Below, piece by piece: positions 1,821-61,756 of a stretch of DNA of 64,000 nucleotides. The DNA is from Minisyncoccota bacterium (GTDB lineage: Bacteria > Patescibacteriota > Minisyncoccia > Phycocordibacterales > UBA9973). A program made the translations under genes and the position numbers. The notes beneath the pieces were generated by a model that saw only the letters and a list, made by a program, of their open reading frames with translations, had not been told where the DNA came from and did not search any database. Numbering within the stretch: the first letter of the stretch is position 1; the number at the start of each line of letters is the position of its first letter. The stretch lies in assembly GCA_017991395.1 (NCBI GenBank), contig JAGOQQ010000005.1, positions 4,726-68,725 of the forward strand. The letters are read 5' to 3'.

Positions 1821-2042
1821 TTATTTCAAAAGTTCGCTACTGGAAATCCCAAGCGCTTTAGAAATTTTTTCTAAAGTTGAAAGAGTAGGATTCATTCGAC
1901 CATTTTCAATGTTGCTGATATATGCTCTATCAACACTCAAAGCGTTCGCAAGGTCTACTTGCGACATGTTTTTTTTCAAACGCCATTTTCTTAGGTTTTC
2001 CCCAAGTTTCTTTCCGGATGACATAAATGGATTATATTCCAA
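1821..2042 (-). CDS. XRE-family helix-turn-helix transcriptional regulator
   Basis: The sequence MSQVDLANALSVDRAYISNIENGRMNPTLSTLEKISKALG is a typical Cro/C1-type HTH. The stop codon lies 4 nt before the ATG of the downstream PLD-SNF2 gene. The likely true start is the internal Met at 2024, which is leaderless with respect to the -10 at 2031-2036. Confidence 0.8.
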   Translation of the reverse strand: MEYNPFMSSGKKLGENLRKWRLKKNMSQVDLANALSVDRAYISNIENGRMNPTLSTLEKISKALGISSSELLK

Positions 2043-2072
2043 GTTGCATCACATTACAACGTGTAATATAAT
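2031..2072. promoter_or_regulatory. Divergent promoter pair with a palindromic operator
   Basis: The plus-strand promoter is TTGCAT (2044-2049), a 17-nt spacer, then TATAAT (2067-2072). The minus-strand promoter is TTGTAA (rc of 2054-2059), a 17-nt spacer, then TATAAT (rc of 2031-2036), ending 7 nt before the Met codon at 2024. The palindrome ATTACA-acg-TGTAAT (2053-2067) sits inside both spacers and is the probable XRE operator. Confidence 0.55.
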
Positions 2073-2079
2073 TCACATA

Positions 2080-2445
2080 GGGCATGTCCGCCCCGAATTT
2101 CGCCAAAAGAAAACGGATGGAGCAAGCGGAGGATTCCTCCCCAGACCCCTTCTCCTCCGCTTGCGAAATCCGAAATTAGCCGAGGTTTTGCGGAAACCAT
2201 ATCCCCAGAAAAATGCTTCCGCAAAACCGAGTCCGCATTGTATTCGTGCTTCCGTCCTTTTCCTTTTGGAAAAGCTCTGTGCTTCGCACAGAGGCGCTTC
2301 AGCGCAACGGATGCACGAGATTAGTCACTTTGCCGTTCGAAAAAAGTTCGAGCAAAGTGTACGATTAGAGCACTAAAACAGTAGTAAAAAGAAATGGTGA
2401 GATGTATCTGTATTTACCTCCTCTCCTAGACAGGAGAGGATTGAG
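2080..2445 (+). ncRNA. Candidate structured leader or ncRNA. It is GC-rich relative to its surroundings and has nested stems. The class is unknown.
   Basis: It lies downstream of the plus-strand promoter. There is a perfect 11-bp stem gcaagcggagg (2122-2132) with cctccgcttgc (2153-2163), nested inside cgaatttcgc...gcgaaatccg. A 12-bp stem joins ggttttgcggaa (2183-2194) with ttccgcaaaacc (2217-2228). An 8-bp stem joins ctctgtgc with gcacagag (2275-2293). The terminal hairpin cctctcct-agac-aggagagg (2421-2440) contains the RBS for the GTG start at 2446. I recognised no known riboswitch consensus. Confidence 0.35.
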
Positions 2446-2854
2446 GTGAGGTTGATTGTACATTCCATGAATAGAATAATTAACAACTCAAATAGAAAAA
2501 GTTTTCGTAAAGAGTTGCGGAAAAATCAAACTCCGCAAGAAATTATTTTATGGTCTAAGGTACGAAATAATCAAACTGGTTTTAAATGGCGCCGACAAGT
2601 AAGTATCGGCTCATATATTGCTGATTTTTACTGTAAGGAAAAATTCTTGGTAATAGAAATTGATGGTTCACAACACGAAGATGCTAAGCTTTATGACAAG
2701 CAAAGGGAGAAATTTTTTCAAAATTTAGGAATTAAAACTCTTCGCTTTTGGAACAACGAAATAAATACCAACATCGAAGGTGTGATGCTTAAAATTTATT
2801 CCGAATTATCAAATACACTACCTCACCCCAACCCTCTCCTGGCAAGGAGAGGGG
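2417..2854 (+). mobile_element. DUF559 ORF bracketed by ~35-bp hairpin-containing terminal inverted repeats. It may be a small selfish element.
   Basis: The left repeat is CCTCCTCTCCTAGACAGGAGAGGATTGAGGTGAGG (2417-2451). The reverse complement of the right repeat (2821-2854) is CCCTCTCCTTGCCAGGAGAGGGTTGGGGTGAGG. The two differ only in the loop and a few spacer bases. Confidence 0.35.
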
Positions 2855-2883
2855 GCACCCAAAAACTCAACACACCAAAATGA
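2446..2883 (+). CDS. DUF559 endonuclease-domain protein with a Vsr-like fold
   Basis: It contains FLVIEIDGSQHED ... LGIKTLRFWNNEI, a typical DUF559 core. It starts with GTG after the RBS AGGAGAGG. Its stop overlaps the miaA ATG (ATGA). The C-terminal 20 aa are encoded by the right inverted repeat. Confidence 0.65.
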   Translation: MRLIVHSMNRIINNSNRKSFRKELRKNQTPQEIILWSKVRNNQTGFKWRRQVSIGSYIADFYCKEKFLVIEIDGSQHEDAKLYDKQREKFFQNLGIKTLRFWNNEINTNIEGVMLKIYSELSNTLPHPNPLLARRGGTQKLNTPK

Positions 2884-3740
2884 AAGAAAAAGAACTCAAT
2901 CAAAAACCCAAAATCATCGTCGTCTGTGGACCTACCGCCACAGGCAAAAGCGACTATGCGGTCACTCTCGCCAAAAAAACTTCAGGTGAGATAATTTCTG
3001 CTGATTCACGCCAAGTCTACAAAGGACTTGATATTGGTAGTGGGAAAATAACAAAAAAAGAAATGCGTGGTGTTCCCCATCACCTTCTTGATGTTGTCTC
3101 ACCAAAAAAAGTTTTCACTGTCGAGCAATTTCAAAAACTCGGAAAGAAAGCAATTTCCAATATTTTGAAAAAAGGCAAAACTCCTATCATCTGCGGTGGA
3201 ACTGGATTTTATATTGACGCTCTAGTGTATGAATCAAACTTCCCTGCCGTTCCGCCAAACAAATCACTTCGTACACAACTTGAGAAAAAATCTGTTGAAG
3301 AATTGTTTGAACTTGTACAAGAAAAAGATCCAGAGCGCGCAGATACTATCGACAGCAAAAACAAAGTGCGACTCATTCGCGCACTTGAAATAATTGATGC
3401 TATAGGAAAAGTGCCTAATGTCAAAAAAGAATCTACATATGATGTGGAGTGGATTGGACTAGATTTCCCCGACGAAATTCTCAAGGAACGAATTCACAAC
3501 AGACTTCTCGCACGAATTAAAAAAGGAATGCTCAAAGAAGCACACAATTTGCATACACAAGGTCTCTCATGGAAAAGAATGCGTGAACTTGGACTCGAAT
3601 ATCGATTTATGGCAGATTACCTCACAGGAAAAATATCGAAAGATGAAATGATAACACTACTCGAAACGGCAATCTGGCAGTACGCAAAAAGACAGAGGAC
3701 TTGGTTTAAGAGGAACAAGGAGATACGGTGGGTGAAATAG
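2880..3740 (+). CDS. miaA: tRNA dimethylallyltransferase
   Basis: The P-loop is IIVVCGPTATGKS. The motifs SADSRQVYKGLDIGSGK and ICGGTGFYIDAL match MiaA. Confidence 0.9.
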   Translation: MKEKELNQKPKIIVVCGPTATGKSDYAVTLAKKTSGEIISADSRQVYKGLDIGSGKITKKEMRGVPHHLLDVVSPKKVFTVEQFQKLGKKAISNILKKGKTPIICGGTGFYIDALVYESNFPAVPPNKSLRTQLEKKSVEELFELVQEKDPERADTIDSKNKVRLIRALEIIDAIGKVPNVKKESTYDVEWIGLDFPDEILKERIHNRLLARIKKGMLKEAHNLHTQGLSWKRMRELGLEYRFMADYLTGKISKDEMITLLETAIWQYAKRQRTWFKRNKEIRWVK

Positions 3741-18096: not shown

Positions 18097-18475
18097 TATC
18101 TGGTATTATAAGCTACATAGCCATAATTTGCGAACATATATATGATCCTAAACCCAAAACATCGAAAAAAAGTGAAAATTATCTGGAGTATTATTTCTAT
18201 TTTAATTGTACTTTCAATGATACTTCTCTATACACCAGTGTTTAGATAGCAATAAGCATGAGAACATAGAACGTGAAGCGTAGAACGTAAAATACTGATT
18301 TTGTGTCATTCTGAACTTGTTTCAGAATCTCAAATACTAAAGAGCGACGGCATAGCCGTCGCTCTTTTTGATTTTCTACATACAAAATATAGTGTTTCGA
18401 GGTATATTTAATTTGCTTGACTTTTTCGGAATTATGTAGTATAATACACACAAAAGAACTTAAAAACTATATCTC

Positions 18476-23082: not shown

Positions 23083-23308
23083 TGTTTCTATTATATACGA
23101 GGAAAGGATGTATATTCAAACTGTTGATAAATTCCAATGAGCGGCGGCCTTTGGCCGCCGCTCATTGTGCGCGTAATAACAAAAGAATTTTAGATCCTGA
23201 AACAAGTTCAGGATGACACGGAATTCAGTATTTCAGGTTCTACGCTCCACGTTTAACGTACAACTTTCCCCGCTATTCCCTCATCCTTATTCCCTAACCC
23301 CTCTTTCT

Positions 23309-26615: not shown

Positions 26616-26852
26616 TTTTTCTAAGATTGTTTAGAAACAGTCTACTGTATTTGGTTTAAAAAGCAAGTAAAATACAAAGTGGGAAAATGCCGAGGCATTT
26701 TCCCACTGTATTTTTTTACCCCTCCTCGCATTCACTTCGTTCATGTCGTCCTCCCCTCTAGGGGAGGCTTTAATTCCGAATTCACTTTTCACTAACCCTA
26801 TTTACTAATCCCTGTTTTCTAAAGTCTAAAGACTAACTACTAAAGACTCTAA

Positions 26853-42829: not shown

Positions 42830-43053
42830 ACGCGAACCTAACGCTGACAGATACATTCACAGTCTTTAGTGTTTAGTTGTTAGTCTTTAGTGAATTTCTG
42901 TATTGTGTCATCCTGAACTTGTTTCAGGAACTCAAGGTTTTTAATTCATTCTTACCCCTCTGCCCTTCGGGCACCTCCCCTCAAGGGGAGGCTTCATACA
43001 TCCGCGTCCATCTGCGTAAAGTCAGCGTTTAGTCTGCGTTAGTTCGCGTCTTA
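42830..43053. repeat. mosaic intergenic repeat block
   Basis: It holds a TCCGCG-type 11-bp array (42811-42850), an ACTAAAGACTN 11-bp array (42859-42893) and the hairpin gtgtcatcctgaacttgtttcagga (42905-42933). It also holds the hairpins gcccttcgggc and cctcccctcaaggggagg (42975-42992) and a second GCG 11-bp array (43009-43053). Confidence 0.75.
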
Positions 43054-61459: not shown

Positions 61460-61756
61460 TCACAGAAAACACGCGGATAGTCGCGGACAAGAGAACACTT
61501 ATGAAGGGCTAAAGCTTAAAGAAATTGGTTTCCTAAAACCAGAATCCTCCTCATTTGAATCATTGCGCAAGGCTGACGAGCCGAGCATAGCAAAAATTCA
61601 GCAGAATTTTATGCGTGATTAAGGGAACACTTATGCAAAGCTCAAAATGAGGAGGATTGGAAAGAGAAAACATCTTTGAGATCCTGAAACAAGTTCAGGA
61701 TGACACAATGCAGAATTTAACTAAAACCTAAAGACTAGCGACTAAAGACTGAATTT

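Follow-up and report, generated by a model that had tools for sequence, protein, structure and literature searches.

The window analysed here is a 64-kb stretch of DNA (64,000 nucleotides, nt) from a Patescibacteria (Ca. Pacebacteria) lineage, in which a DUF559 nuclease gene lies directly upstream of miaA. The product of miaA is 100% identical to MiaA of a Ca. Pacebacteria metagenome-assembled genome. The nuclease gene is intact, is the only DUF559 open reading frame (ORF) found in the window and is flanked by two 34-nt units, which leave ~370 nt of coding sequence between them and are equal at 29 of 34 positions when one of them is inverted. An earlier, sequence-only reading of the locus had described these units as inverted, hairpin-bearing terminal inverted repeats (TIRs) around the DUF559 gene. 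The inverted arrangement is borne out; the "TIRs" themselves are, judged by their sequence, copies of the BoxC/PIT/TM intrastrand-triplex motif. The gene with its two units is called the cassette, or module, in what follows, and the coordinates are collected in Table 1.

Table 1. Location of the cassette, its junctions, miaA and the solo motif units in the window
Feature	Position	Strand	Remarks
Left junction segment	2370-2418	+	Common only to cassette-bearing relatives (GCACTAAAACAGTAGT ... GTATCTGTATTTACC), in which it follows the 3' end of tRNA-Leu(CAA)
Left triplex-type unit ("B" orientation)	2419-2452	+	Hairpin 2419-2440, TCCTCTCC TAGACA GGAGAGGA, with perfect core 2420-2439, CCTCTCCT-AGAC-AGGAGAGG; TTG (2441-2443); 9-nt mirror purine tail AGGTGAGGT (2444-2452)
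DUF559 nuclease gene (YcjD-like, Vsr/I-Bth0305I fold)	2467-2883	+	Pfam DUF559, homolog alignment
Right triplex-type unit ("A" orientation on + strand)	2820-2853	-	Inverted copy of left unit; ACCTCACCC at 2820-2828 (GGGTGAGGT on - strand), CAA, hairpin 2832-2853, CCCTCTCCT GGCA AGGAGAGGG, with core 2833-2852, CCTCTCCT-GGCA-AGGAGAGG
Right junction segment	2857-2902	+	Only in cassette-bearing alleles; stands in for the miaA promoter TGGTATAAG and start codon of empty relatives
miaA (tRNA dimethylallyltransferase)	2880-3740	+	Pfam IPPT, 5e-68
Solo triplex-type unit, intergenic	26718-26767	-	Hairpin 26750-26767 (CCTCCCCT CT AGGGGAGG); 25-nt second loop; tail GAGGGGT on - strand at 26718-26724
Solo triplex-type unit, intergenic	42954-42991	-	Hairpin 42974-42991 (CCTCCCCT CA AGGGGAGG); 13-nt second loop with mini-hairpin GCCC GAA GGGC; tail GAGGGGT on - strand at 42954-42960

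The repeat units and the DUF559 protein

All parts of the motif can be recognized in each of the two units: a pyrimidine arm, a first loop of 4-6 nt, a purine arm, a second loop of 3 nt and a 9-nt mirror purine tail, with stems of 8-9 nt. Both tails mirror the purine arm perfectly according to the rules of the purine-motif triplex (G on G, A or T on A). This anatomy equals the published TM_ECO/BoxC pattern, CCCTCNCCC-N3-6-GGGNGAGGG-N3-GGGNGAGGG (PMC4666352). The tail of the left unit is directed toward the DUF559 gene, and the right unit sits within the 3' end of the ORF. Because each hairpin is palindromic by itself, it is the tails and the first and second loops that give the units their inverted orientation, not the stems, which alone also score as an 85% direct repeat in a repeat search of the window. 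The pattern CCTCYCCT-N2-8-AGGRGAGG has four matches in the window, compared to none in 100 shuffles.

Reading the hairpins as terminators was rejected, as they lack a following T-run and no terminator-like site was found in window 2000-3000. A promoter in or beside the left unit was also rejected, no convincing sigma-70 match being present. Neither the units nor the DUF559 gene gave an Rfam match, at the gathering cut-off or at E<=1, and for the window units ViennaRNA predicted the hairpin only.

The BoxC/PIT/TM motif has been known in Escherichia coli since the 1990s and has been catalogued in hundreds of bacterial genomes over three decades. The BoxC/PIT element was reportedly described by Bergler in 1992 and by Bachellier in 1999. 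To our knowledge, these motifs have no known function, origin, dispersal mechanism or partner enzyme.

An earlier account of intrastrand-triplex motifs was given by Hoyne and Maher in 2000 (as cited in PMC4666352). The main study of the motif, by Holder et al. in 2015, found it in more than 260 genomes and demonstrated, by circular dichroism and nuclear magnetic resonance, that the single strand of the E. coli motif (TM_ECO) forms a stable triplex in vitro (PMC4666352). In E. coli, the TM_ECO loci vary between strains, with 29 in strain 55989 and one in IHE3034, and are prone to rearrangement; the adjoining genes show no functional bias. The same study reports that no mobility-related gene has ever been found beside the motif, and it mentions neither an endonuclease nor ycjD (PMC4666352). 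The published motif and the units described here have in common a C/T arm, a 3-6-nt loop, a G/A arm, a loop of ~3 nt and a mirror G-rich third segment of ~9 nt, as well as their occurrence as dispersed intergenic units, often two in inverted configuration, at strain-variable loci. In contrast to the published motif, which has no associated enzyme or neighbour bias, the present units are tied to DUF559 in a preferred orientation and are partly translated as a protein C-terminus. They also differ in occurring in Patescibacteria with 8-9-nt stems, the second loops of the solo units being 13-25 nt long.

The ORF at 2446-2883 matches Pfam DUF559 (PF04480) with E=3.4e-34 over profile positions 3-108 of 109. 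In its longest form, this ORF opens at a GTG at 2446, inside the left tail. Nearly all homologs open at the methionine that corresponds to ATG 2467 ("M(N/P)RIINN"), which is likely the true start of the gene. Since the homologs start at this position, 14 nt probably separate the end of the left unit from the start codon downstream, so that the overlap proposed in the sequence-only reading is probably wrong. Its other proposal for the gene ends, a C-terminal extension through the right repeat into the miaA start, holds: the DUF559 stop TGA (2881-2883) overlaps the miaA ATG (2880-2882), forming ATGA at 2880-2883. The conserved DUF559 core ends near 2811, and the last 24 codons consist of the right unit (PHPNPLLARRG...) and the spacer past it. 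The encoded "PHP(S/N)PLL..G" tail is common to nearly all close homologs, whose C-terminal "PHPSPLLKGEG" reads as simply the repeat unit in translation.

The catalytic residues of the protein, D53, E64, D66 and H70 (D..E.D...H), are invariant in 25 aligned sequences including that of the window. The AlphaFold model (pLDDT 82) matches best the structure 3HRL (E=2e-6), followed by the catalytic domain of I-Bth0305I and then by PvuRts1I/AbaSI and Vsr. Foldseek gives a probability of 1.00 and a TM-score of 0.77 on the target for I-Bth0305I, and a TM-score of 0.50 for Vsr (1VSR). By sequence, 3HRL (Neisseria NGO0050) is the sole solved relative (E=7e-18). The NCBIfam model PRK09767 (E. coli YcjD) is matched with E=2e-25, at 89 bits compared to a model cut-off of 218, which is below the equivalog threshold. 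The protein consists of a 115-residue nuclease core only, in which no DDE, HUH, serine or tyrosine recombinase domain was found. The gene lies among a helix-turn-helix (HTH) gene, miaA and an unknown ORF, and no cytosine methyltransferase is present among these immediate neighbours, to which the search for one was confined. A role as a defence system was rejected, since PADLOC gave only a weak partial match, to a DpdF segment.

Filled and empty alleles at the tRNA-Leu/miaA site

At the tRNA-Leu/miaA site, the module is present or absent as a block, and it has replaced the promoter and the start of miaA. In this lineage, it fills the spacer between tRNA-Leu(CAA) and miaA, together with a left flank of ~50 nt and a right flank of 25-45 nt. 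The filled relatives (L001-3 and L121-123) have the order ParB on the - strand, tRNA-Leu(CAA), ~60 nt, the cassette and a miaA of 286 amino acids (aa). The empty relatives (L115, L116, L117, L119 and L120), which provide the empty site to be looked for after the sequence-only reading, have the order (ParB), tRNA-Leu(CAA), a terminator, the TGGTATAAG promoter and the ATG of a miaA of 281 aa. No DUF559 gene and no triplex-type unit were found in the tRNA-Leu/miaA spacer of these five. The miaA DNA of the cassette-free relatives is 80-92% identical to that of the window.

The difference between the filled and the empty state is a replacement: homology ends at the 3' end of the tRNA and resumes at window position 2903, within miaA. 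The first five codons of the window miaA (MKEKE) are specific to cassette-bearing relatives. A scan of the right junction (2857-2902) gave no promoter-like or terminator-like site. Because the module removed the promoter and the start codon of miaA, this gene presumably shares a transcript with DUF559 and is coupled to it in translation via the ATGA.

The miaA tree does not separate the filled from the empty state but has the two interleaved, since the miaA DNA of the window is closer to that of the empty relative L116 (91.6% identity) than to that of the filled relative L122 (84.0%). Between the window and L122, the left unit together with the nucleotides up to the ATG is identical at 50 of 50 nt, and the right unit at 95.6%. 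The DUF559 core is 90.7% identical, with 23 synonymous versus 7 non-synonymous codon changes, compared to 84% identity for miaA. Despite the identical left unit, 20% of the DUF559 codons are synonymously changed. The 50/50 identity and the ratio of codon changes indicate that the DUF559 gene and the left unit are under purifying selection.

Other nuclease genes are found at or near this site. In L127, an ORF of the LAGLIDADG type (189 aa, 36-605) lies between tRNA-Leu and miaA in place of the 5' two-thirds of DUF559, and the 3' end of DUF559 with a mutated right unit is still present at 606-724. In L115, a small GIY-YIG ORF (1172-1489), another selfish-type nuclease gene, is located beside ParB, just upstream of the empty site. 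In the window itself, a spacer of 320 nt (2085-2400, + strand) separates the HTH gene from the cassette and has a minimum free energy of -117.6 kcal/mol, compared to -79.0 +/- 4.5 kcal/mol for shuffled sequences (z=-8.5). This spacer holds several long perfect stems and gave no Rfam or tRNA match; the relatives have tRNA-Leu(CAA) there. Either a structured RNA of an undescribed kind or an element that has decayed or been rearranged may lie here.

Across bacterial phyla, DUF559 genes and motif units make up a module with conserved layout and preferred orientation

Of the loci compared here, 80 come from GTDB genomes of many phyla and 31, close to the window protein, from metagenomes, 107 remaining after the removal of duplicates. 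They were chosen by tblastn with the tail included in the query, which could slightly favour loci carrying a downstream unit; the upstream enrichment is unaffected by this. Perfect GC-rich hairpins occur 0.86 times per locus in the 100 nt upstream and 0.82 times in the 100 nt downstream of the DUF559 core, compared to ~0.02 per 100 nt farther away. The stems always have the pyrimidine arm first (CCCTCTCCC type), in Proteobacteria, Bacteroidota, Chloroflexota, Cyanobacteria and Patescibacteria. In the 107 loci, 205 pyrimidine/purine hairpins were counted at no more than 150 nt from the gene. A mirror tail of at least 6 nt accompanies 189 of them (92%), versus 17% with shuffled flanks. A tail in direct repeat, which would make three binding sites rather than a mirror, was rejected, the mirror rule being followed in 151 cases and the direct-repeat rule in 3.

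Complete triplex-type units are 73-fold enriched near the gene (6.4 per kb, compared to 0.087 per kb elsewhere in these loci), and at least one lies within 150 nt in 97 of the 107 loci. Their tails point toward the gene in 59 versus 13 upstream units (p=4e-8) and in 49 versus 16 downstream units (p=5e-5). The tails-inward layout of the window is the commonest, with 35 of 47 typed pairs. Close relatives of the window locus have a near-constant layout: an optional extra unit, a hairpin, N4-5, GGTGAGG, 10-25 nt (often with TATAAT) and the ATG, then the gene, CCTCACC, N4, a hairpin and the stop. In several of them, TATAAT stands between the unit and the ATG. A solo unit (hairpin and GGTGAGG) followed by a TATAAT-like box was also seen directly upstream of another, unidentified ORF in L110 (~1000-1080).

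Whole units can also occur in tandem at a spacing of 42 nt. Three such units lie upstream (630-760) and two downstream (1130-1200) of DUF559 in L084, and four lie downstream of it in L013 (4390-4560). In L088, the end units are likewise multiplied in tandem.

The two solo hairpins that had been noticed near 26749 and 42975 of the window are real and belong to the same motif class, with 7-nt mirror tails of the ACCCTC type. The variant with a long second loop, like the unit at 42954-42991, is also found upstream of the DUF559 genes of L005 and L010. Among the compared loci, the arms of 28 of 46 distant units are of the same variant as those of the unit that flanks DUF559 in that locus, compared to 2.7 expected, and distant units in the same contigs are often arranged as inverted pairs. 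Tails-inward pairs without a gene, ~40 nt apart, were seen at an orthologous site in two sphingomonad genomes (L025, 2578-2738; L070, 2604-2750); these are cassette ends minus the gene. A second dispersed repeat, (G)AGATCCTGAAACAAGTTCAGGATGACAC, is made of the hairpin TCCTGAA-ACAAG-TTCAGGA and GACAC. It has four copies in the window (18301-18334, 23188-23219, 42899-42935 and 61675-61712), one of them 19 nt from the solo triplex-type unit at 42954, and is present in the relative L115, too.

The DUF559 homolog of E. coli, ycjD, is located between sapF and fabI and adjoins BoxC units, and its ORF terminates in a degenerate unit ("SPSP*"). The region beside envM/fabI is presumably the one in which BoxC was first described. 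E. coli YcjD (PRK09767) and Neisseria NGO0050 (3HRL) are members of the DUF559 family like the window protein (E=2e-25 and 7e-18). E. coli YcjD differs in that the window protein is under the equivalog cut-off and in that ycjD has no clean tails-inward pair. In E. coli K-12 (L128, 4245-4400, minus strand), a duplicated, decayed 3' end of ycjD (ETVLENI...LN) is followed by a canonical BoxC unit, CCCCTCGCCCCTCTGGGGAGAGGGTTAGGGTGAGGGG, which looks like a remnant of a second cassette end.

Among 5,426 complete E. coli genomes, 3,377 carry ycjD, and the others carry eefRABCD at the site. Replacement of eefRABCD by ycjD has been described in at least two E. coli lineages (PMC12817139). A clean empty site was not found in E. 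coli, and no breakpoint can be read there, because the ycjD-negative strains hold the eefRABCD operon instead. In a spread sample of 60 genomes, motif-matching places number 10-25 (median 17) with ycjD and 1-15 (median 5) without it (Mann-Whitney 7e-10), a difference confounded by phylogroup. Within that limit, the counts fit a dependence of repeat number on ycjD.

A nuclease and its putative cognate repeat

The locus can be read, with moderate confidence, as a module of a nuclease and its cognate repeat (repeat, DUF559 gene, inverted repeat), which is REP/RAYT-like and is passed between lineages as an allele. The DUF559 nuclease would recognize and cut the structure or the sequence of the flanking repeats. 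As in REP/RAYT systems, a single-copy chromosomal nuclease gene would sit between copies of the repeat family that it maintains or disperses. Transfer of the module from one lineage to another would involve the entire allele and rely on homologous recombination within the conserved flanks, in a homing-like way and not by transposition, and the expression of miaA would depend on the cassette.

REP/REPIN-RAYT systems, which are constituted of an IS200/IS605-like HUH Y1 transposase and REPs, share with this locus a single-copy chromosomal nuclease gene between inverted short palindromic repeats. Also shared are the dispersal of the repeat in the same genome as singlets and inverted doublets, its taxon-specific variant and the rarity of the gene on plasmids. 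In contrast, the enzyme here has a PD-(D/E)XK Vsr fold and is not a HUH tyrosine transposase, so the system possibly works like RAYT without being a member. The repeat here also has a third, mirror segment, and an action of the enzyme on it is putative.

Several observations weigh against this reading. The association between DUF559 and the motif is one of position, from which we infer the link between nuclease and repeat. Some 8-10% of the DUF559 loci have no unit at all, and units also occur in other orientations (A..B in 6 loci, B..B in 3 and A..A in 3). In E. coli, a triplex signal was missing in vivo, and the motif acted neither as a promoter nor as a terminator (PMC4666352); in the window, the triplex is putative. 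Genomes of the O157:H7-like type lack ycjD and yet have ~12 motif places, and the E. coli correlation is confounded by phylogroup. The window genome shows no simple dispersal of the flanking variant, because its solo units differ (CCTCCCCT stem, long second loop). Finally, the synonymous divergence per codon between the window and L122 is 0.20 for the cassette versus 0.25 for miaA, and this resemblance leaves no sign of recent horizontal transfer here.

No target-site duplication, the other mark of insertion suggested by the sequence-only reading, was found at the window locus or across 35 tails-inward loci, the longest shared outer-flank word being 3.7 nt, compared to 3.4 nt in the control. 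The window cassette contains no transposase, and the edges between the filled and empty states do not fall at the repeat ends. One identical protein, P0062, is encoded on 18 contigs in the single context PAP2-DUF559-SecD, and another, P0021, on 8 contigs in the single context peptidase-DUF559-LamG. Recent transposition was rejected on this ground, as neither ever changes its context. Plasmids seldom carry a member of the DUF559 family (36 of 72,556 records, the majority of them megaplasmids), and phages hardly ever do (3 of 50,697 records). The insertion of a TIR-bounded cassette, as first proposed, stands in part: an empty site exists, the repeats are common to other DUF559 copies and the ends are inverted. 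The rest of that proposal falls with the missing duplication and transposase, the edges off the repeat ends, the one context per protein and the scarcity on plasmids and phages. Among predicted inversion targets, the annotation "DUF559 domain-containing protein" is over-represented 14-fold (Milman et al., PMC9881135), which is consistent with inverted repeats overlapping these genes.

It is unlikely that the gene is a free-standing homing endonuclease gene. DUF559 would then cut the cassette-free tRNA-Leu/miaA allele, or another site, and be copied in by recombinational repair, with the repeats as passengers or as aids to expression or stability. The fold of the model is next-closest to that of the homing endonuclease I-Bth0305I (TM-score 0.77), and, as with known homing genes, presence or absence is polymorphic at one site. 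Close relatives carry filled and empty alleles in an interleaved pattern, a whole segment is replaced between conserved flanks, and the LAGLIDADG gene of L127 at the same site suggests a niche for selfish nuclease genes. The replacement of eefRABCD by ycjD in at least two E. coli lineages (PMC12817139) is a further point in favour. However, no intron or intein is involved, and the contexts of the homologs are wholly different (miaA, SecD, LamG), therefore no conserved target gene exists across them. Conserved flanking repeats are foreign to known homing endonuclease genes, and homing leaves unexplained why the same motif surrounds the gene in the same orientation in unrelated contexts and phyla. 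A recent sweep is not visible either, the synonymous divergence being like that of the host gene.

An ordinary host repair nuclease, either a Vsr-type T:G mismatch nickase or another structure-specific enzyme, appears rather improbable. The repeats would in this case be mRNA-stabilising or regulatory hairpins, or recombination hot spots where acquired genes land. VsrA of Caulobacter is a DUF559 protein proposed for very-short-patch repair (PMC12907096), the gene is single-copy, chromosomal and under purifying selection, and motif loci in E. coli are prone to rearrangement (PMC4666352). On the other hand, no cytosine methyltransferase lies directly beside the gene, and the hairpins lack the T-runs of terminators. 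Stem sequence is kept across phyla, which generic hairpins would not need. Holder et al. saw no bias among neighbouring genes in E. coli, yet the motif is 73-fold enriched at DUF559 genes with a preferred orientation.

A classical transposable cassette, with the 34-nt repeats as transposon ends moved by DUF559 or by a transposase in trans and the gene-less pairs as miniature inverted-repeat transposable elements, is very unlikely: the inverted ends lie close to both ends of an ORF that runs into the right one, gene-less tails-inward pairs have the same ends, end units are multiplied in tandem in L084, L088 and L013, and the inversion-target enrichment (PMC9881135) points the same way, but the protein is a nuclease core with no transposase or recombinase domain and is single-copy in the window, its family is scarce on plasmids and phages, each identical protein keeps one context, unit orientation varies, and neither target-site duplications nor indel edges at the repeat ends are found.

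The reading as a nuclease with its cognate repeat can be extended, tentatively and with less than even confidence, to the whole family. YcjD-type DUF559 nucleases may be the missing partner enzymes of the BoxC/PIT/TM repeats, acting on hairpin or triplex DNA to create, maintain or destabilise the repeats. They would then constitute, next to REPIN-RAYT, a second nuclease-and-repeat system of this type, which would be based on a PD-(D/E)XK enzyme and reach from E. coli to Patescibacteria. No paper tying DUF559 or ycjD to the BoxC/triplex repeat was found in the literature, where older work (Bergler 1992, Hoyne 2000) was outside the search and a prior mention is possible. The nuclease and the repeat were each already known, and within the searchable literature their linkage appears to be the new part.

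For the window, the module accounts for the lost promoter and start codon of miaA and for the coupling of this gene to a nuclease gene. More widely, the oriented linkage across phyla gives a testable hypothesis to two orphans, the large DUF559 nuclease family, which is classed as of unknown function and includes ycjD, and the BoxC/PIT/TM motif. As E. coli K-12 has both ycjD and 23 copies of the motif, the hypothesis is directly testable there.

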